From assembly GCA_001871075.1 (NCBI GenBank), contig MNUP01000130.1, forward strand, positions 1 to 32,636: DNA of 32,636 nt. Reading direction: 5' to 3'. The notes beneath the pieces were generated by a model. It had not been told where the DNA came from. It searched no databases and saw only the letters and a list, made by a program, of their open reading frames with translations. Of this stretch, positions 1,524 through 30,519 are shown one piece after another (positions within the stretch are counted from its first letter, which is position 1; each line of letters starts with the position of its first letter). The position numbers were made by a program, and so were the translations under genes. Origin of the DNA: Candidatus Desantisbacteria bacterium CG1_02_49_89 (GTDB lineage: Bacteria; Desantisbacteria; UBA1551).

Positions 1524-4007
1524 ATGCTTAAATCGATCAGGGCTAAAGCCCTGAGTTACATTATCGTGCTGGTGTTCGCGATGCTGGCGCCGGGGGTGGT
1601 CATGGCTCTTGACAGGCCGTATATAGCCGTCACGTTTTTTTACTGGTACACCTGGGATTACAAGAATGAGAAGGGCGGGTGGATAGACGGGGGCGTGGAC
1701 AATACCCCGTTGTTCGGCTATTACAATTCGCCGTCTCTGGAGGACAACTACCACTCGCAGTGGCTCGCGAGCGAGTGGGGGGTCACGCACCACTTCATGG
1801 ATTTCTGGGGCCAGGGCTGGAAGGCGAAAGACGGCAAGGCACCCAGGGAAACAGTTGTCATGCAGGCCGCGGAGCAGCTGCAGAAAGAAGGTTATGACAT
1901 ATATATGTCCTTCTACCAGGACGGGAAAAAATTCAATATGAGCGATTTTTCACAGAATATCTCCGACCCGAAAAATAACGACGTCAGGTTCTGGCTGGAT
2001 AATTACGCCAAATCACCCGTATGGCCCAAGTGGCAGAATAAACCTTTCTGGCTTGTTTACGGAAGGAACGGCAGCCCGAAGCAGACAACTGATAACAGCG
2101 GGTTCAAGGAATACCTTAAAGCCAGATACGGAGACAGTATAGATAAATTAAACAAGATATGGGGCACGGAATATTCCACATTTGACGAGATCACCCTGAA
2201 ATACACAAAGGGATGGAACCGGGCTGAGTCCATCAACTACCAGTATTCGGTCTGGCAGAAGTCAATGGACGAAATGAACAGGCTCGCGAAGGAAAAATAC
2301 GGGTGGGCAGGCTTGATCCCGTCCTTTGACGTGTGGTGCGACCCGTTTATGGGTTACGGTTACTCAAATTACCACAAGGCATTCGGCGGGCCGCATTCAT
2401 ACGGCGGGATATTCGACCGCCCCGAGACCCAGGACGCGCAGAGGCTGATACAGAGCGCGGTCGCAAGGTACTACAACACGATATTCTGGGATACGTATAA
2501 GAACTATTACTGCGACTGGAATACCGAGTCCCGCATACCCGGTTTCAAATTTTTCCCCGAACCTTTTCACTTTGACAGGTTCTGGGTCGGCAACCTCATG
2601 CGCCATTCGGAGGCGATGGTCCACCTTTCCTGGAACGAGTGGTGGGAGGGATCGAACCTTGAGCCCAGCTTTGAGTACGGGAAAAAATTCTGCGAGAAGA
2701 ACCTTTTCTATGCCACTGTGATGAAGGAGTGCTTCGAGAGCCTTCGCGACTGCGCGAAAGGCGCGAAGACCGCGGTGCTGCTCAACGACTGGTCGTGGCT
2801 TGCGGGCAGTAACAGCGTGGCTGACCTGTACGGCGTGATACAGTCCCTGAGGCTTTTCGATGTTGCATTCGACCTGATACCGGACGATTTTGTGGACGCG
2901 GCAAAGCTTGAGAATTTCAGCCTTGTCATCGCTCCGTCGAACGGGACCGGGTTCGGTTCTAATAAAGACGGGAAATCCATTGCGAAGATCCTGCAGGAAT
3001 GGGTGGAGAAAATCCCCGGCAGGAGGCTTGTGGTATCATCATGCCCGGAATTCGCGCAGTACCTGGGCATAACCGAAGGCACGGATAAGGTAAAGGGAGC
3101 GGATAAGAAACCGCTGGATTTCCTCGCGAAGGAAAAAGATAAAAATACTGCCTGGACAATACTGGGGGAAGCGGACCAAAGCAGCAACCTTAGAATAGCG
3201 GCTACGGGAGAGGGGGATGTAAAGGCCGTTAAAAAAGGCGGAAGGTTTGCCAAAACAGCAACCGAGAACCCGACTTCAAAGGATTCGAAATATATGTATT
3301 TTGACGTTGACAACGGTTTTATTTCCAACGCCAGCTGGCCGAAAGTAAAAATGACGGTTGAGTATTTTGACGAGGGCAGCGCGCAGATAAGCATGTTCTA
3401 CGATTCATGCGACCAGGAATACCAGGCTTATCCGGGATACCCTCCCGGGACCTGGAAGCCCGCGGAAGAGAACATAGCGCTGGAGGATTCGGGGCAGTGG
3501 AAATCGATCACTTATAATATCGAAGACGCGCGGTTCTCTAACAACTGCAACGGCATGGATTTCAGGTTCAACATTCCCGGAAGCTTTGAATTCACCGTTG
3601 GGAAAGTGACCATCGAGAAGATAGGCGAGCCTGAGGCGCTTGTTCTGCACAGCCCTGAGATCTTCGGCGAGGAAAGCGGCAAGCCGATCTCGCTTGCTAT
3701 GCCCAAGCACGACACACATAATTTCGGAAAAGGAAAGCCGGTCACGTATTATAATTCCGACCTGTGCGCGAGGGACGCTGTGTTCGCGAAGGGTAAGGGC
3801 GAAGTATTGTTTGTAAACGACCTCGCGGGCATTTTGGAATATAAGCCCTACTGGGAAAAGGTCCTTTCCAACTGGGCGAAGGTTGACCTGCCCAAGACCG
3901 TTTATGGGGACAATGTCAGGGGGACCAGGCTTTTCAGTGGCGGGACCAGTATTTTGCTCGCATATAACTACAATCAATTGCAAATTGCAAATTGCAAATT
4001 TCCCTAA
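1524..4007 (+). CDS. Secreted GH99/GH71-like glycoside hydrolase with a trimerisation-like domain and a CBM-like domain; probably the 5' part of a frameshifted gene
   Basis: GGGGA RBS and N-terminal signal peptide. Motifs FFYWY, 'TPLFGYYNS' and 'SWNEWWEGSNLEPS' are GH99-like; 'YLKARYGDSIDKLNKIWGTEY' is a GH42-like insert. The ORF ends inside a repeat tract. Confidence 0.7.
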   Translation: MLKSIRAKALSYIIVLVFAMLAPGVVMALDRPYIAVTFFYWYTWDYKNEKGGWIDGGVDNTPLFGYYNSPSLEDNYHSQWLASEWGVTHHFMDFWGQGWKAKDGKAPRETVVMQAAEQLQKEGYDIYMSFYQDGKKFNMSDFSQNISDPKNNDVRFWLDNYAKSPVWPKWQNKPFWLVYGRNGSPKQTTDNSGFKEYLKARYGDSIDKLNKIWGTEYSTFDEITLKYTKGWNRAESINYQYSVWQKSMDEMNRLAKEKYGWAGLIPSFDVWCDPFMGYGYSNYHKAFGGPHSYGGIFDRPETQDAQRLIQSAVARYYNTIFWDTYKNYYCDWNTESRIPGFKFFPEPFHFDRFWVGNLMRHSEAMVHLSWNEWWEGSNLEPSFEYGKKFCEKNLFYATVMKECFESLRDCAKGAKTAVLLNDWSWLAGSNSVADLYGVIQSLRLFDVAFDLIPDDFVDAAKLENFSLVIAPSNGTGFGSNKDGKSIAKILQEWVEKIPGRRLVVSSCPEFAQYLGITEGTDKVKGADKKPLDFLAKEKDKNTAWTILGEADQSSNLRIAATGEGDVKAVKKGGRFAKTATENPTSKDSKYMYFDVDNGFISNASWPKVKMTVEYFDEGSAQISMFYDSCDQEYQAYPGYPPGTWKPAEENIALEDSGQWKSITYNIEDARFSNNCNGMDFRFNIPGSFEFTVGKVTIEKIGEPEALVLHSPEIFGEESGKPISLAMPKHDTHNFGKGKPVTYYNSDLCARDAVFAKGKGEVLFVNDLAGILEYKPYWEKVLSNWAKVDLPKTVYGDNVRGTRLFSGGTSILLAYNYNQLQIANCKFP

Positions 4008-7661: not shown

Positions 7662-8270
7662 ATGAAAAGATTGATACTGCTTGGTTTGGCCGCGGTATTT
7701 TCAACAGTGGCCGCGGCTGGCGTGTTCGCGCAGGAAGCCGCGAAGAAGGCGCCTTCTTACGTGAAGGATCCTGACGCGGCATGGGTTATCCTTTCAAAGA
7801 AGCCGGTGAAGACGGGGCTGGAACTGCTTGAGAAAGGGGCTGAGGGTGACAACGCGCCTGCGACAAAAGGCGGCAAAGAGGCGTGGGCCGCGCTGGGCAA
7901 GAACAACGCGGTTCCCGACAACCCGGACGCTTCGCCTTTTATGTATTTCAAGATCACAAAAAAGGCATTCAAGAAAGGCGCCGCGCCGCGCGTAAAGCTT
8001 ACCGTGGAGTACTTTGACGAGGGAGAAGCGGAAGTAGGGCTTGAATACGATTCATCGGATGACGCGGTCGCCAAATGCCCGATTCCCGGAGCGTTCAAGG
8101 ACCACGAGGAGAAGATAATACTGGAAGATTCAGGGAAGTGGAAAACCTTTTCTTTTGAAATAGAGGACGGCAAGTTCGATAACGGCTGCAACGGGTGTGA
8201 TTTCCGTTTCAACTTCGCGGGCGGGGTGACCTTCACAATCGGTTCGGTCGCGGTTGAAAAAATGAAATAA
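7662..8270 (+). CDS. Secreted protein made of a single CBM-like beta-sandwich domain
   Basis: Signal peptide. Motifs MYF..., TVEYFDEG, LEDSGxWK and NxCNGxDFRFN match the internal domain of 1524..4007. Confidence 0.8.
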   Translation: MKRLILLGLAAVFSTVAAAGVFAQEAAKKAPSYVKDPDAAWVILSKKPVKTGLELLEKGAEGDNAPATKGGKEAWAALGKNNAVPDNPDASPFMYFKITKKAFKKGAAPRVKLTVEYFDEGEAEVGLEYDSSDDAVAKCPIPGAFKDHEEKIILEDSGKWKTFSFEIEDGKFDNGCNGCDFRFNFAGGVTFTIGSVAVEKMK

Positions 8271-11153: not shown

Positions 11154-11475
11154 GAGTCAGAGAGTCACAGTAGTGGCAGAGCTTGCTCTGCGAGTTCTTT
11201 CGTAGGGCAAGCCTTCTCGAAGACCCCCGCCAAACTGACTGGCGGGCAAGCTGCCAGTTTTGTTAGGAGGGAGGCTTGCGGGTAGCCGCAACCTTCAGGT
11301 TGCGTTTTATAGAGGCGGGGTTTATCCTGAACCTGCCGTGTCCGCCAAGTTTGTTAGGCGGAATGGTTCAGCGGCATGCCCGCCCTTTACAACTCCCCCT
11401 TTGTAAAGGGGGATTGAGGGGGATTTTGCGGCGCGGCGTTTCGTCGCGCATTGTAGTGGTCGAGCTTGCTCGACA
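11153..11475. repeat. Cluster of GTAG-headed REP-like palindromes and other hairpins
   Basis: GTAGTGGCAGAGCTTGCTCTGC (11170), GTAGGGCAAGC... (11202), GTAGCCGCAACCTTCAGGTTGCG (11282) and GTAGTGGTCGAGCTTGCTCGAC (11453). CTCCCCCTTTGTAAAGGGGGATTGAGGGGGATT (11393) has a near-identical copy at 6029. Confidence 0.75.
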
Positions 11476-11537
11476 ATTAATTAAGTATTGTGTCCCCGGA
11501 ATTCCATAACCACGCGATTACACGAGGAGTCTTAAAA

Positions 11538-12053
11538 ATGAGAGCGATCGTCCCGCAGGAAGTCCTCGAACAAAAGATTTTTCTAATTCGCAGCCAGAAG
11601 GTCATATTAAGTACCCATCTTGCTGATCTTTATGGGGTTGAGGCAAGGGAATTGATCCAGGCAGTTAAGCGCAACATCGAAAGATTTCCCGGTGATTTTA
11701 TGTTTCAATTGACAAATGATGAATTTAAAAACTTGAAATCACAAATTGTGATTTCAAGTTGGGGCGGTATGCGGCGCGCCAGACCTTACGCCTTTACTGA
11801 AGAAGGGATAGCTATGCTGTCCAGTGTTCTGCGGAGCAAGAGAGCCGTGCAGGTCAATATTGCCATTATGCGCACCTTCGTAAAGCTTAGAAACATTCTT
11901 TTAGCTCATAAAGAACTTGCTCATAAATTAAAAGAGCTTGAAAGAAAATTCGAAAAGCACGATGAAGAAATAATAGCAATCTTTAATGCGATCCGCCAGA
12001 TGATGGCGCCGCCGGAAAAAGTAAAACCGCGGATCGGCTTTAAGCCATACTGA
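11538..12053 (+). CDS. ORF6N domain DNA-binding protein (copy A)
   Basis: GAGGAG RBS before the ATG at 11538. IFLIRSQKVIL...LADLYGVE...QAVKRNIERFPGDFMFQLT...PYAFTEEGIAMLSSVLRS, a coiled coil, and the tail RIGF. Confidence 0.9.
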   Translation: MRAIVPQEVLEQKIFLIRSQKVILSTHLADLYGVEARELIQAVKRNIERFPGDFMFQLTNDEFKNLKSQIVISSWGGMRRARPYAFTEEGIAMLSSVLRSKRAVQVNIAIMRTFVKLRNILLAHKELAHKLKELERKFEKHDEEIIAIFNAIRQMMAPPEKVKPRIGFKPY

Positions 12054-12243
12054 AAATAATTAAGTATTGTGTCCCCGGAATTTTTACACAAAAGTTGAAG
12101 AAAAAATAAGGGACATTATGGGACATACTTAAGGGACATTAAGGGGCATTTGGAATTTTTTATCTTGCATCCCGTATCAAAATCTATCAGAATCTATCGC
12201 CGGAAGACGCCTGCCGAGAGTTTATGAGCAAATATTAGCTCCG

Positions 12244-12355
12244 CTAACAAAAGAAGAATTTTTGAGGTGCTAAATTATCACCTCAAACTTGAAGTGCCAT
12301 TTTGACACATCAAGCAGAGGGGGAAGAAGGTATTTACCCTATGTTTTTACAGAAA
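12244..12355 (+). pseudogene. ORF6N gene fragment (variable region only)
   Basis: Translates LTKEEFLRC*IITSNLKCHFDTSSRGGRRYLPYVFTE. Confidence 0.8.
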
Positions 12356-12376
12356 TAAAATAATCAGAGAGAAAAA

Positions 12377-13723
12377 ATGAAATTTAAGGAAAATGAAACT
12401 ATAGAGCTTAAAAAATCAACTTCAGAATTGAAAGAAGCAATCATTTCCATCAGCTCTATTCTGAACAAACATGGCAAAGGCACAGTCTATTTTGGCATTG
12501 AGGATGATGGTAAAGTTGTTGGACAGCAGATAGGCAAATCAACAGTTAAAGATATTTCTAAATGGATAACCGATCACATTGACCCTAAAATCTACCCTGA
12601 TATTAAAGTTCAGAAAATAGTCGGCAAAGATTGCATTGTTATTAATTTCAACGGACATGAAAATTTGTATTCAGCCTTTGGACGTTTTTATTTAAGAGCC
12701 GGGGATGAGAATAAAAAGCTTTCTACGAAAGAAGTTGAACGGCTTATTGCAAAAAAGCAGAACTATATTTATTCATGGGGTTTTCAAGTTTCAGAAATAC
12801 CAGTTTCTGTTGTCGATGTCCCAGCAATACGGGCATTTATTAAAAAAGGCCGGGAAGCAGGACGAATTAGCTGTGCATTTGATACGGCAAGGAATGTCTT
12901 GAACAAGTTAAACCTTGTAAAAGGCAATAAATTGCTCAATGCCGGAAAGGTTTTATTTTGTAAGAATAACAGTCTTGAAGTAAGGGCAGCAATTTTTGCC
13001 ACTAACGAAAAAACAACTTTTTTGGATATCCAACTGTTTAAAGGAACACTTTTTGATTTAATCAATCAATGCGAAGCATATATTAAAGAACATATAAACT
13101 GGAGTGCGGAGATAGTTGGATTTAAGCGGGTAGAAACTCCGGAAGTTCCGGTTAATGCTGTGCGGGAAGCCATTGTAAATTCCTTATGCCACCGCGATTT
13201 TGATAATCTTGGCGGGAATGAAATTGCTATTTATAAAAATAGAATAGAAATCTACAATCCCGGGCAATTTCCATATGATTATTCCCCTGATGATTTTATC
13301 CGGGGCAAAGAAAAAAGTCTTCCCAGAAATCCTCTGATTGCAGATACTTTTTATCTAACAAAGGATATCGAGAAGTGGGGTTCCGGATTAAAAAGAATCA
13401 GTGATGAATGTAGGGTTTCCGGCGTGAAGGTAGAGTTCAATAAGATTAAAAGTGGATTCGTGGTGATATTTTATCGCCCGCAAATCGAAAAGGGCATAGA
13501 AAAAGTCGGAGATGAGGGTGTAAATGAGGGTGTAAATGAGGGTGTAAAATTTCCATTGGAATACATTAGAAAAAATCCTGGCAAGAGAGCACCTTATATT
13601 GCAGGAATGCTTAAAGTCCCATTAAAAACACTTGAGCGCTGGTTGAAAAAACTGAAAGCAAAAGGAAAAATAAAATACGAAGGAAGCTCAAAGACCGGTG
13701 GATATTACGTTGTTGGTCAGTAG
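12377..13723 (+). CDS. AlbA_2 (Schlafen-like)/HATPase_c_4/winged-helix protein, often annotated as a RecG-like transcriptional regulator
   Basis: ENETIELKKS, GTVYFGIEDDG, REAIVNSLCHRDF, RIEIYNPG, RNPLIA and IEKWGSG, followed by a 12-bp repeat linker (EGVNEGVNEGV) and a C-terminal wHTH. Confidence 0.88.
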   Translation: MKFKENETIELKKSTSELKEAIISISSILNKHGKGTVYFGIEDDGKVVGQQIGKSTVKDISKWITDHIDPKIYPDIKVQKIVGKDCIVINFNGHENLYSAFGRFYLRAGDENKKLSTKEVERLIAKKQNYIYSWGFQVSEIPVSVVDVPAIRAFIKKGREAGRISCAFDTARNVLNKLNLVKGNKLLNAGKVLFCKNNSLEVRAAIFATNEKTTFLDIQLFKGTLFDLINQCEAYIKEHINWSAEIVGFKRVETPEVPVNAVREAIVNSLCHRDFDNLGGNEIAIYKNRIEIYNPGQFPYDYSPDDFIRGKEKSLPRNPLIADTFYLTKDIEKWGSGLKRISDECRVSGVKVEFNKIKSGFVVIFYRPQIEKGIEKVGDEGVNEGVNEGVKFPLEYIRKNPGKRAPYIAGMLKVPLKTLERWLKKLKAKGKIKYEGSSKTGGYYVVGQ

Positions 13724-13806
13724 ATAGGAAAATGGGCGCTGTCCCTACTTTCAATAAAACGTATCGGTCCCGACAAGGGCGGCCATTGGGAAGTGGTCGA
13801 AAAATC

Positions 13807-13982
13807 TTTTTGAGGTGCCAAATTGTCACCTCAAACTTGAAGTGCCATTTTGACACATCAAGTTGGGGTGGAACCCGTAAACTACCCTATACTTTTACCG
13901 AGAAAGGCGCGGCCATGCTTTCCGTCAACTTATGGCGCCACCGGAAAAAGTAAAACCGCGGATCGGCTTTAAACCATGCTGA
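13807..13982 (+). pseudogene. Internally deleted ORF6N remnant (variable region plus 3' end)
   Basis: FLRCQIVTSNLKCHFDTSSWGGTRKLPYTFTEKGAAMLS is joined, through a TCC microhomology and out of frame, to [19 protein letters not shown]. Confidence 0.85.
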
Positions 13983-14072
13983 AAAATAAATAAGTATTGT
14001 GCCCCCGGAATTTCAAAAAACAACCCTTTTGTTGTTTAGGTCGCAATTTGCGACCTTAAACAAGTCTTAAAA

Positions 14073-14600
14073 ATGAAAGCGATCGTCCCGCAAGAAGTTA
14101 TTGAGCAAAAGATTTTTTTAATCCACCGGCAAAAGATAATGTTAGATAAGGACCTGGCAGAGCTATATGGGGTAACCACGGGCAACCTAAATAAAGCGGT
14201 AAAAAGGAATGTTGAAAGATTCCCGGAAGATTTTATGTTCCAGTTAACTAAGAATGAGGAGAATTCTTTAAGATTCCAATTTGGAAGCTTAAAAAGAGGT
14301 CGGCATGCCAAGTATCTGCCTTATGCCTTTACAGAACAAGGTGTAGCCATGCTTTCGTCTGTGCTGAAAAGTAAGAGAGCCGTACAAGTCAACATTGCTA
14401 TTATGCGGGCCTTTGTAAAACTTAGAAACATCCTTTCCACCCATAAAGAACTTGCCTGCAAATTAAAGGAGCTTGAAAGAAAAACAGGAAAACATCTAAA
14501 AAAACACGATGTCGAAATCCAAGCAATTTTTGATGCAATCCGTCAACTTATGGCGCTGCCGGAAAAAGTGAAACCGCGGATTGGCTTTAAGCCATGCTGA
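14073..14600 (+). CDS. ORF6N domain DNA-binding protein (copy B)
   Basis: Paralogue of copy [48 protein letters not shown]. Confidence 0.9.
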
Positions 14601-14746
14601 AAAATAAATAAGTATTGTGTCCCCGGAATTTAATACAACAACATTTGGAGAAGAACCTTAATTTTTAATGGGGAATAAAGATGACTTATAAGAAATTTGT
14701 AAAAGAATATTTATTTAAAGGATTTCTGAAAAGACAAAAATAAAAA

Positions 14747-19233: not shown

Positions 19234-21332
19234 ATGAAAAAGAAAAAAGATCACGAAGAAGACGAAAGGTCAAAAACGACCCAAAATATTGAAGAACTGG
19301 CGCAACTTGCAAAAGAAAGCCAGGAACAAAAGCTGCCTGAGCAGAAGGTTGTTTTTAAAGCAGATTCTATAAAAGCTCGTGCGGGAAGACGAGGAGTCCA
19401 TAATTTACCAGACCAAACTAATCCCCCGATGGGTTTTGACCCGGAAAAAGCCTTTGACAATATATTTCCCTTTATTAAGCTTCCTTATCTTCAACCCAAT
19501 ACGCCGGAGGATATTATAAGTTTTGGTTCACCGGATGTGGGTGGGTTTTTAGATACAAAGAATAAGAGAATTCCGCTCAATGCTATCTTTTTTGGCGATA
19601 ATTTGCATATTTTAAGAGCATTACCCTCAAATTGCATAGACCTTATTTATATTGATCCGCCATTTTTCTCCGGTAGAAACTATAATTACTGAGAATCGCA
19701 TAATACCTTGACAGTTGTCTTTGCGAGCGATAGCGAAGCAATCTCGTTTTTAACGACGGGATTGCCACAGGCTTCGCCTTCGCAATGACATCAAAAAACG
19801 TCAACCAATTAAGCGAATATCAATAGATATGGGGAGATGATAACGAAGTTAGAACTTTCCACGACATTTGGGAAGACGGTCTGCCAAGTTATTTGGTTTG
19901 GCTGAATGCCCGATTATGGGAAATGCGCAGAGTTTTAAAAGATATAGGTTCAATATATATCCATTGTGATTGGCACGCCAGCCATTATATTAAATGCGAA
20001 ATGGATAAGATATTTGGGTATGATAATTTTCAAAATGAATTTATATGGTATTATGGTGGAGGTGGAGCATCAAAAGAAAGATGGGGTAGAAAACATGACG
20101 TAATTTTATTTTACACAAAAGGTAAAGAGTGGACATTTAATATTGATGCAGTGAGAATACCCCATAAATGGACTGATGGACAAAAAAGAGCTGATGGAAG
20201 CAAAAGGGATTATGATAAAGGGAAGATACCCGATGATGTGTTTATTCATCACTCCGTAATGCCCTGGGGTGGTGAGAAAATTGGCTATCCTACTCAAAAG
20301 CCAGAAGAATTATTGGAGCAAATAATTAAGGCATCATCTAACAAAGGCGATTTCGTTGCTGATTTCTTCATGGGTGGTGGAACAACTTGTGCTGTTGCCC
20401 AAGAGCTTAATCGTAAATTTATAGGTTGTGATATTTCAAGAGTAGCCTCTTCAGTTACCCTCAATCGTTTAATAAGAGACGCAGAGCAGATTTCGGGAAG
20501 AACTGCTTCGATAAATATTGATAAAAAAGATAAACCGCTCAGCTTAGAACTTACTATAAAAGAAATCCCTGACATCAGGGTTTATTATATGGGTGTATAT
20601 CCAATTGAAAAGTTTGAGTTTATCGGGCAGAAAGAATTTGAAGACTTTATTCTAACTTCTTATGAATCAAGAAGATTCACCGGAGAGGGTGAAATTACAG
20701 GAGTAATGAATGCCGCTACTTCCGTACTAATCGGTTCAGTCAAACCAAATGAGTCTATACCTGAAGCAAGATTGAAAAAATTCGTAGAGGACATTCTGAA
20801 ATTACGTTATCAGGAAAACATCAGGATGAAGTTGAAAGTAATTGCCTGGGTATTTCCTCCATCATTACAAAGATATGCAAAAGTCTTAGAAAATTATTTC
20901 TTTAAGAAAAATTTGGCGGTTGAGATAGAACTGATTCCCATAAACAGCCAGTTATTCAGAAAAAGGATATTGGAACATTATCAGGATACGTCTAAAAGCG
21001 AATTTTTACTCAAATTTATTTCGCAACCTTCAATTATGGATATTGTCTATAAGAAAGTCAGCGGGCTTAAATACAAATTTGAGGCAGTCGGGGCAAGGAG
21101 CAACAATATAGACGGATACCTCATAAATTGTCAGTGGGATTTCAATTTTGCAGGTGGTAAATTCGGTGAAAGTGAATTCGCCCTTATGCGGGAACAAAAA
21201 GACGGCAAGTATGTGGCAATTCTGAAGGCAGAAAAAGAATTTGAAAAGTTGGGCAGATATATCGTTGCCTGCCGTGTGCAGGACAATCTTGGCGGTGAAA
21301 CGATAAAGACAAAAGGAGTGGAGATTAAATAA
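19234..21332 (+). pseudogene. Type III-like N6-adenine methyltransferase (Mod, beta class) interrupted by a MITE
   Basis: The 5' part ends ...YIDPPFFSGRNYN. After the insert the frame resumes IWGDDNEVRTFHDIWEDGLPSYLVWLNARL...YPTQKPEELL...DFFMGGGTT. Confidence 0.88.
19687..19825. mobile_element. MITE family 1, copy 1 (TA-flanked, about 18-bp imperfect TIRs)
   Basis: Ends TACTGAGAATCGCATAAT ... ATTAAGCGAATATCAATA. It interrupts a gene and has a second copy at 23791. Confidence 0.85.
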
Positions 21333-29653: not shown

Positions 29654-30519
29654 AAAAAACAGCGGAATTGCTTAACTGGGCGCAGGAACAGCTGAGGGAT
29701 GCCGGCATACCGGAGGCGGAGGCGGAATCCGAACTGCTGCTTGAAGAACATACGGGGCTTACGCGCACAGGGCTTTACATGAACCTTGGCAGCTGCGCAA
29801 GCATGGACGAGGAACTGTTAGAGGACAGGATAGCGAAGCGCAGGAACCGCTTTCCGCTCGCGTATATAATAGGAAAGGCGCGTTTTATGGGTTTTGACTT
29901 CCTGGTTGATGAACGCGTGCTTATCCCGCGCCAGGAAACCGAGCTGCTGGTCGAAAATACCGTGAATACGTCGTACGTCGTACGTCGTACGTCGAACAAC
30001 GAAATATCAATATTAGATATAGGGACGGGAAGCGGGAATATAGCGGTTTCACTGGCAAAGCTGATCCCTGAAGCGAAAATATTCGCGACAGATATTTCTG
30101 AAGACGCGCTTGCGGTTGCGGAAAAGAACGCGGTCCTTAACACGGTCAGGGATGAAATTACTTTCATCCGCTCGGACCTGTTTTTGGGGATCGGGAACCT
30201 GCGGAAGAACAGCGTTGATATAATTGTTTCAAACCCGCCGTATATCCCTGCCGCGCAGATCGCCGGATTACAGCCCGAGATCCGTTTCGAGCCGCGCATT
30301 GCCCTGGATGGCGGCGAAGACGGCGCGGATTTCCACAGGAGAATAATAAGCGAAGCCCCCGCATACCTCAGGAACGGCGGTTTTCTTTTCATGGAAATGG
30401 GCGCGGGCCAGTCCGCGGGTATTACGGGTATGGTTTCCAAGAACGGGAATTACGTAAAATTTGGCATAATAAAGGATTACGCGGGCATCGACCGCATTGT
30501 CTGGGCGGTTAAAAGATAA
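29650..30519 (+). CDS. prmC: Release factor glutamine methyltransferase
   Basis: PLAYIIG, VLIPRQETELLVE, LDIGTGSG, SNPPY and ALDGGEDG; follows prfA. Confidence 0.95.
   Translation: MKKTAELLNWAQEQLRDAGIPEAEAESELLLEEHTGLTRTGLYMNLGSCASMDEELLEDRIAKRRNRFPLAYIIGKARFMGFDFLVDERVLIPRQETELLVENTVNTSYVVRRTSNNEISILDIGTGSGNIAVSLAKLIPEAKIFATDISEDALAVAEKNAVLNTVRDEITFIRSDLFLGIGNLRKNSVDIIVSNPPYIPAAQIAGLQPEIRFEPRIALDGGEDGADFHRRIISEAPAYLRNGGFLFMEMGAGQSAGITGMVSKNGNYVKFGIIKDYAGIDRIVWAVKR
29967..29994. repeat. (TACGTCG)4 inside prmC
   Basis: Four perfect heptamers within the stretch encoding TSYVVRRTS. Confidence 0.95.

Follow-up and report, generated by a model that had tools for sequence, protein, structure and literature searches.

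The stretch of DNA analyzed here, 32,636 nucleotides (nt) of contig MNUP01000130.1 from Candidatus Desantisbacteria bacterium CG1_02_49_89 (positions 1 to 32,636; termed the window), carries two intact genes of the ORF6N family, gene A (11538..12053, plus strand, 171 amino acids; Pfam PF10543 at 111.9 bits; PADLOC PDC-S05 at E 2.9e-57) and gene B (14073..14600, plus strand, 175 amino acids; 115.9 bits; E 5.6e-62), and seven copies of a 25-nt palindrome lie within and around them. Each 25-mer was scored as 12 pairs around one centre base. The copy in gene A has a core at 11733-11757 that pairs at 12 of 12 positions, encodes LKSQIVIS and extends to a perfect 31-mer (11730..11760, with arms 11730-11744 and 11746-11760 that are 100% complementary), and the copy in gene B (14268..14292; 11/12) encodes LRFQFGSL. 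Tandem copies are found in two ORF6N remnants, on the left at 12262..12313 (12262-12286, 11/12; 12289-12313, 9/12; starts 27 nt apart) and on the right at 13810..13861 (13810-13834, 11/12; 13837-13861, 9/12), and a free non-coding copy (14035..14059; 11/12) has its centre 26 nt upstream of the gene B start codon. Rescoring thus reproduced all seven palindromes where the original prediction from this sequence had placed them (12, 11, 11, 9, 11, 9, and 11 of 12 pairs, in the order gene A, gene B, left, right, free copy), including the distance of 13 nt from the end of the free copy to the gene B ATG (14073) and the zero to two mismatches counted with 11-bp arms and a 3-nt loop, where both 9/12 copies have two. 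Translation likewise gave the predicted peptides, and the translated reverse complement of the gene A 25-mer keeps the frame and changes QI to QF, as had been claimed. The palindromes of the window exceed chance; only 12 25-mers with at least 10 of 12 pairs occur in its 32,636 nt, five of which are the palindromes listed above, and 77 with at least 11 of 12 occur in the whole 2.48-Mb genome.

The palindrome is a feature of the family. All six full ORF6N genes of the genome have it at the same codons with at least 10 of 12 pairs and in six different sequences, and the codon changes among these paralogues are paired; for instance, a first codon TGG (Trp) is matched by TCC (Ser) as the last codon, and TTG (Leu) by TCA. 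At a fixed codon offset, at least 10 of 12 pairs were found in 64 of 69 gene segments from 80 loci on genome contigs of many phyla, and with looser anchors in 158 of 162 segments (74 at 12, 56 at 11, 28 at 10, and 4 at 9), the looser pattern drawing its segments from 147 of 160 genome and metagenome loci and the first pattern having missed 14 of the 80 genome loci. The 80 loci from viral contigs included 78 genes with the anchor motifs, and every one of these has 8-12 pairs. The comparison with codon-shuffled controls that the original prediction had proposed (68 segments, with L060 left out and L078 at a shifted offset) placed palindromicity far above the shuffles, with a mean of 11.2 pairs versus 4.9 ± 0.18 for uniform synonymous shuffles and 6.2 ± 0.21 for shuffles by pooled codon usage; none of 1000 synonymous shuffles lay above 6.84 pairs. 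When arms were swapped between sequences (55 distinct), 8.6 pairs were obtained versus 11.1 observed. Among 142 distinct homologous 35-mers, 93.8% of the cells are paired versus 70.6% in shuffles (0 of 500 shuffles reach the observed value), slid controls give 26-44% pairing, and cells changed on both sides number 386 versus 103 expected. Hence the claim that the inner arms differ between copies yet stay self-complementary holds both for the six genes of this genome and for the homologues. The symmetry extends over 13 pairs (83% paired), is weaker at pairs 14-15 (55%) and is at background beyond, and A and T share the centre base almost evenly (57 and 54 of 113 sequences), which leaves the site without an orientation.

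Two further observations separate this symmetry from the encoded peptide. The wobble base of a Ser codon (TCA/TCG) covaries with Val/Ala at the partner codon, which ties a synonymous site to a non-synonymous one. In addition, the inner palindrome is retained but read in another frame in 17 segments with a peptide of the ELV[AT]NCDRF or EVV[AT]NCDHL type, and in this subfamily the wobble base of the Cys codon varies together with Ala/Thr at the partner codon. Conservation in a second frame and covariation at synonymous sites show that it is DNA or RNA that is selected and not the peptide. That protein-level selection cannot explain the symmetry, as the original prediction had argued, is thus strongly supported by the sequence comparisons, namely by the synonymous shuffles, the synonymous-site covariation and the second reading frame. 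On the evidence of the aligned sequences, the palindrome is established as a cis-acting nucleic-acid element of 25-27 bp at a fixed place in ORF6N coding sequences, and its symmetry as one maintained by paired changes, irrespective of codon choice and frame, across phyla and viral contigs.

What the element does is a separate question, and the paired changes themselves bear on the main rival to the reading that we favor below. According to this rival, which we regard as possible but doubtful, the element acts as a base-paired structure, formed either by the DNA (hairpin or cruciform) or by RNA (a hairpin within the mRNA or 5' leader), whose shape would be read by a general or family-specific factor (in stability, processing, pausing or structure sensing), and only complementarity would be constrained. 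Changes on both sides at 10 of the 12 pairs, with many pair types per position, fit this explanation, as does the finding that pairing of the central 3 nt is dispensable. The seven copies of the window are also predicted to fold as RNA hairpins of -7.4 to -17 kcal/mol, with the gene A palindrome at -17 kcal/mol (z -6.5). An RNA stem would, however, be expected to accumulate G-U pairs, and these are not enriched, either in the coding copies (29 G-U versus 105 other non-pairs among the 142 distinct 35-mers) or in the non-coding copies, where the 38 non-Watson-Crick cells comprise 8 G-T, 11 A-C and 19 others; this argues against an RNA stem and for an element at the level of DNA. The RNA hairpins of Rfam 15 resemble the palindrome in their compensatory stem changes and their short, conserved centre, but no Rfam family matched near its gathering score (the best match had 24.7 bits versus a gathering score of 80), and they differ from it in the unenriched G-U pairs and in a centre at which A and T are equally frequent. 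The stems lack a downstream T-run on the sense strand, and a scan for promoters and terminators gave counts at the level of shuffled sequence, the sole 'terminator' at a palindrome lying on the minus strand of gene A and not being general. For a DNA structure, arms of 11-12 bp around a centre of 1-3 nt are short for stable cruciform extrusion, which also counts against this rival.

The non-coding copies show that more than complementarity is retained. They are present upstream of 26 of 135 homologous genes (33 copies), with centres mostly 16-60 nt before the start codon, and some genes have two that abut, with a spacing of 31 nt in L029 and L125. By our own count on an unbiased list of palindromes, T7, C10, G16 and A19 are common to the coding copies and to 15 of 18 upstream palindromes. 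That non-coding copies sharing these sequence features recur a short way before start codons is therefore firmly established, as far as sequence features can establish it, and their base identity at several positions goes beyond pairing and so speaks against a role of structure alone. On the other side, each copy is symmetric by itself, coding or not, while being unlike the other copy at the same gene, which is in keeping with a structural role. Three free palindromes of the ORF6N type were also observed away from ORF6N genes (C94:13328-13352, C11:2753-2777, and C4:525-549), the first of which (12/12) is located ~85 nt upstream of a DUF1016 gene. A mobile palindrome like a repetitive extragenic palindrome (REP) or a miniature inverted-repeat transposable element (MITE) was considered and rejected, as by our reading ~16 of 53 matches in the genome are of the ORF6N type and 12 of these are in or beside ORF6N genes or remnants.

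The original prediction had offered two mechanisms, one of which was diversification, in which the hairpin templates rapid switching of a variable segment; in its boldest form the peptide would recognize its own coding DNA, and specificity and site would change together. The segment is indeed among the more variable parts of the domain, the flip exchanges I for F, which are about equally common, and all six paralogues of the genome differ. Rates of change point the other way. The variable arm positions evolve more slowly than third codon positions (0.28 versus 0.51 at a domain divergence of 0.285, and 0.42 versus 0.57 at 0.33), five gene pairs below 0.20 nucleotide divergence differ at none or few of them (0 to 0.075 on average), and, as far as the data can resolve, A/T differences at the centre reach saturation no sooner than those at four-fold sites. 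Since the arms are not faster than synonymous sites, diversification is not supported. Moreover, upstream copies are unlike the copy of their own gene, and the second subfamily keeps the DNA while its peptide is read in a different frame. The stretch is present in 24 groundwater or aquifer DNA runs (no RNA run is listed), and an inverted, converted or switched allele, which the original prediction had suggested looking for, was read from none of the contigs of four of these metagenome runs, contigs that cannot show rare variants. Hence neither hairpin-templated diversification nor cassette exchange was borne out, and we consider diversification hardly credible; switching like that of a diversity-generating retroelement or of cassettes was rejected on the same two grounds, the slow arms and the lack of a switched allele in the contigs of the four runs.

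Another explanation requires no function at all. Quasipalindrome template-switch mutagenesis, which is reportedly associated with Ripley in 1982 and with the Lovett laboratory, is a mutational mechanism, and by analogy it is the kernel of the earlier 'hairpin-templated' proposal. It resembles what is seen here in that a change in one arm is copied into the other, giving paired changes without two mutations, and the available part of one source describes template switching as turning imperfect inverted repeats perfect (PMC7202029). A functionless quasipalindrome could in this way perpetuate itself, with template switching restoring its symmetry within a peptide segment for which any sequence would be acceptable. 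The peptide is variable (entropy of 0.9-2.1 bits at residues 66-73) and in part a low-confidence loop in the structural model discussed below, and in one subfamily it is replaced by an out-of-frame reading. What mutational bias alone would leave unexplained are the fixed position, the conserved bases and the upstream copies: the same position and core are found across many phyla, on viral contigs and in two frames, non-coding copies cluster just upstream of start codons and are not random, and analogous fixed-place elements occur in two further families (see below). We therefore judge a functionless origin to be very improbable.

The left ORF6N remnant (12200..12371, plus strand), as read from sequence and translation, consists of a degenerate LTKEEF, the two tandem palindromes and ...PYVFTE, and has an in-frame TAA inside the first palindrome. 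The right remnant (13807..14024, plus strand) starts at its palindromes and runs to ...AMLS, followed by an internal deletion and then the ORF6N 3' end; a profile search gave a partial PF10543 match (13816-13923) of 26.2 bits, relative to a curated cut-off of 27.8 bits that is exceeded in six genes of the genome. Its end at 13915-14024 is 90% identical to the gene B 3' end at 14533-14642 (repeat D1). Between the remnants lies a gene with SLFN_AlbA_2 and HATPase_c_4 domains by Pfam (12377..13723, plus strand), which has the direct repeats D5 on both sides (12259-12353 versus 13807-13901, 83% identical over 95 nt). From these sequences, four of the five spare copies look like relics of ORF6N genes left by homologous recombination around the AlbA_2 gene, which is itself cargo and outside the palindrome element. 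Gain or loss of this gene could not be traced, as the syntenic locus was found in none of the relatives compared, the nearest of which belongs only to the same taxonomic order. The notion of five spare copies as a store of cassettes accordingly fell away, with four of them in two decayed ORF6N fragments and one being a non-coding upstream copy of the recurrent type.

The bracket around the AlbA_2 gene nevertheless raises the possibility, in our view an improbable one, that the palindrome is a recombination site or hot spot for the insertion or exchange of defense-island cassettes between ORF6N copies, in the manner of an integron or shufflon. The D5 repeats begin exactly at palindromes, the right remnant has no ORF6N homology upstream of its palindrome, and the intact ORF6N genes at four loci (L022, L024, L034, and L078) each contain two in-frame palindromes, the second following the first by 27-45 nt, which recalls the tandem pairs of the remnants. 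However, an identity of 83% over 95 nt, as in D5, is more readily explained by homologous recombination of ORF6N copies than by a site-specific event, the site is in the middle of the gene and not at the ends of a cassette, and the six paralogues of one genome all have different arms, so that no single recombinase could bind all of them. None of the 14 window proteins scanned, which do not include every open reading frame, matched a recombinase family. A site of the attC, dif, hix or shufflon type was rejected because of these six different arms and the lack of a recombinase among the 14 proteins.

Palindromes of the same size are present in two other gene families. RhuM genes of this genome (C14:448-1194; also on C100 and C120) contain a coding palindrome of 25 nt whose position is fixed relative to the YNLD codons (70 or 79 nt before their end), and in a search of 121 genomes that yielded 28 distinct segments from 30 loci (L254-L283), at least 10 of 12 pairs were found in 22 of the 28, the best palindrome per segment having a mean of 10.36 versus a synonymous null of 7.80 ± 0.16, with strong compensatory variation. 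In DUF1016/YhcG genes (loci L284-L313) a 25-nt coding palindrome is located 54 or 63 nt after a GFS..N motif, and 10 of 17 segments have at least 10 of 12 pairs (mean 10.0 versus 7.34 ± 0.20), the other 13 of the 30 loci being without the anchor pattern. The yhcG gene of Escherichia coli K-12 has three in-frame copies 39 nt apart (11, 10, and 11 of 12; positions 8131, 8170, and 8209 of L314). The ORF6N, RhuM and DUF1016 palindromes have little in common beyond size and symmetry. Same-sized palindromes of unrelated sequence, and three of them in tandem in E. coli, are added support for the structural explanation.

The protein that might read the element is of a DNA-binding type, and its Pfam match to ORF6N is accompanied by a weak one to Phage_pRha. 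A model from AlphaFold2 (AF2; predicted local distance difference test, pLDDT, of 80.7) contains two helices that resemble a helix-turn-helix (residues 25-32 and 36-45) and, toward the C terminus, a long helix (101-137), and Foldseek gave the Dachshund/Ski DNA-binding domain as the best match, with a probability of 0.92-0.97 but weak E values of 0.07-0.2. A sequence search of the Protein Data Bank (PDB) returned no relative of the protein. Residues 66-73, those encoded by the palindrome, span a helix end and the first part of a low-confidence loop, so that the structure prediction which the original prediction had called for, in order to see if the segment contacts DNA, offers no clear reading element there.

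We propose, as a best guess that we hold tentatively and short of regarding it as probable, that the palindrome is a docking site in duplex DNA for the ORF6N protein itself, with symmetry helped by template switching; the sequence patterns suggest this reading. The reader would be a two-fold symmetric oligomer of the ORF6N protein, which we infer, and the element would serve as a built-in operator or roadblock. The conserved positions would be those read by the protein, the unread positions would drift yet stay symmetric, aided by quasipalindrome template-switch mutation, the optional upstream copies would be extra operators, and the peptide encoded by the palindrome would be a tolerant linker. 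A site inside the gene would travel with a small and often promoter-less defense-island cassette whatever promoter reads it. This corresponds to the second mechanism of the original prediction, an operator embedded in the regulator's own gene, which therefore stands as our leading, if tentative, reading, while the exchange of cassettes or segments does not.

A number of results weigh against such a docking site. The upstream copies are no closer to the palindrome of their own gene than to those of other genes (3.44 versus 3.49 arm differences, P 0.41), with identical arms in only 1 of 34 comparisons, so that a paralogue-specific match of protein and site is not supported. Upstream and internal copies are not in helical phase with each other (Rayleigh p 0.25-0.70, n = 34), and the intragenic site is near-universal versus upstream sites at 19% of genes. 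The centre of the ORF6N dyad is the most conserved part and the centres of the half-sites are variable, which is the opposite of many operators and is in keeping with a hairpin whose loop is conserved. The peptide encoded by the palindrome is, in the structural model, no clear DNA-reading element. Lastly, the same-sized, fixed-place palindromes of RhuM and DUF1016 genes share almost no sequence with that of ORF6N or with each other, which weakens the idea that each protein reads a site of its own and keeps the structure-dependent explanation alive, as one such process would be more economical than three protein-site pairs.

Sites inside the gene of their own binding protein have precedents, such as parS in spo0J of Bacillus subtilis and the iterons of the lambda origin in gene O. 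As in ORF6N genes, a short symmetric or repeated site is located in the coding sequence of a DNA-binding protein and is inherited with it, and extra copies are possible outside the gene. In contrast to these examples, the ORF6N site is family-wide across phyla, shows compensatory drift at most arm positions, occurs in two frames and, where internal, is unmatched to its own upstream copies, and binding is putative here. A second comparison is with the controller (C) proteins of restriction-modification systems, which autoregulate through palindromic C-boxes upstream of their gene. They are likewise small DNA-binding proteins in restriction or defense loci with palindromic sites at their own gene, but the C-boxes are upstream and not in the coding sequence, and the proteins belong to a different fold family.

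The setting of genes A and B agrees with the notion of a defense cassette. Both match three PDC-S05 profiles with E values of 1e-37 to 1e-62, the best values quoted above being against PDLC04856, and by profile match they are members of this candidate defense family. On their 3' side the window encodes methyltransferases, a Csa1/Cas4-like protein, a BrxC/D-like ATPase, a ResIII helicase and a TnsA-like fragment, and by this predicted gene content the window around genes A and B is a defense island. The likeness to PDC-S05 as catalogued in PADLOC thus lies in the profile matches and in this neighborhood; the difference is that the catalogue covers proteins only, and that the single representative tested, according to the available part of the report, is a RhuM-domain protein and not ORF6N (bioRxiv 10.1101/2024.09.26.614923). 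That RhuM-type gene is described there as protecting E. coli against T7, T5 and T4, with ~1000-fold lower plating of T7 and T5.

Several other features of the window were noted. Two adjacent open reading frames (19234-19692 and 19893-21332) match the N-terminal and the remaining part of a DNA methyltransferase (N6_N4_Mtase), whose gene is apparently split or interrupted by ~200 nt. Beside genes A and B and the right remnant lie copies of D4, a flanking repeat of ~25 nt (11472-11509, 12051-12088, 13981-14018, and 14599-14636), which was rejected as part of the element because it is dispersed through the genome (18 matches on 11 contigs when up to three mismatches are allowed, most of them away from ORF6N genes). 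The intergenic region before gene A (11154-11537) contains further dispersed repeats and short G+C-rich hairpins, and copies of ~11202-11280 that are 91-96% identical are present on contigs C91, C87, and C6. A 7-nt A/T-rich unit is repeated three to six times in tandem at 3979-3999 and at 35 other places in the genome, often just upstream of genes and on many contigs; its junction resembles the centre of the ORF6N palindrome, which may be coincidence. A short tandem repeat of a 7-nt unit at 29966-29997 was also among the palindrome matches.

The metagenome runs provided observations of a more practical kind. In runs X2, X8, X20, and X24 (11664-11770 and 12716-13156), the contigs end at every palindrome, and the summed depth over the gene A palindrome is 10-500 times that of its neighbors because the ORF6N genes of many other organisms share that word. 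The contig joints listed join paralogues or the dispersed D4 repeat, and run X8 also contains another version of AlbA_2 that differs at 43 of 441 nt. As a practical note, the palindrome breaks metagenome assemblies at ORF6N genes.

In the literature searched (on ORF6N, on KilA-N inverted repeats, and on palindromes or hairpins of RhuM and DUF1016), no description of the ORF6N palindrome was found, and a search of phage records gave only five unannotated metagenomic ones. A DNA signal that constrains the overlying protein sequence and survives a change of frame is rare, and such signals are easily missed because gene annotation sees only the protein. A broader proposal, which is speculative and which we consider unlikely as a whole, is that an undescribed class of coding-embedded, symmetry-constrained DNA elements marks the ORF6N, RhuM and DUF1016/YhcG cassettes, each a 25-nt palindrome at a fixed place after the helix-turn-helix region and in any reading frame. 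Such an element might be a portable site of control or sensing, at which either the protein docks in cis or a hairpin or cruciform state reports changes in DNA induced by infection. The element is directly testable, in that synonymous recoding can break its symmetry and E. coli K-12 yhcG has three copies. If it is a docking site, it would explain how promoter-less defense cassettes keep their regulation wherever they land, and it would provide a handle for finding the targets of a large and uncharacterized candidate anti-phage family. If instead it is a structure-dependent element common to ORF6N, RhuM and YhcG, it would point to a common, as yet unknown step in the biology of these cassettes.

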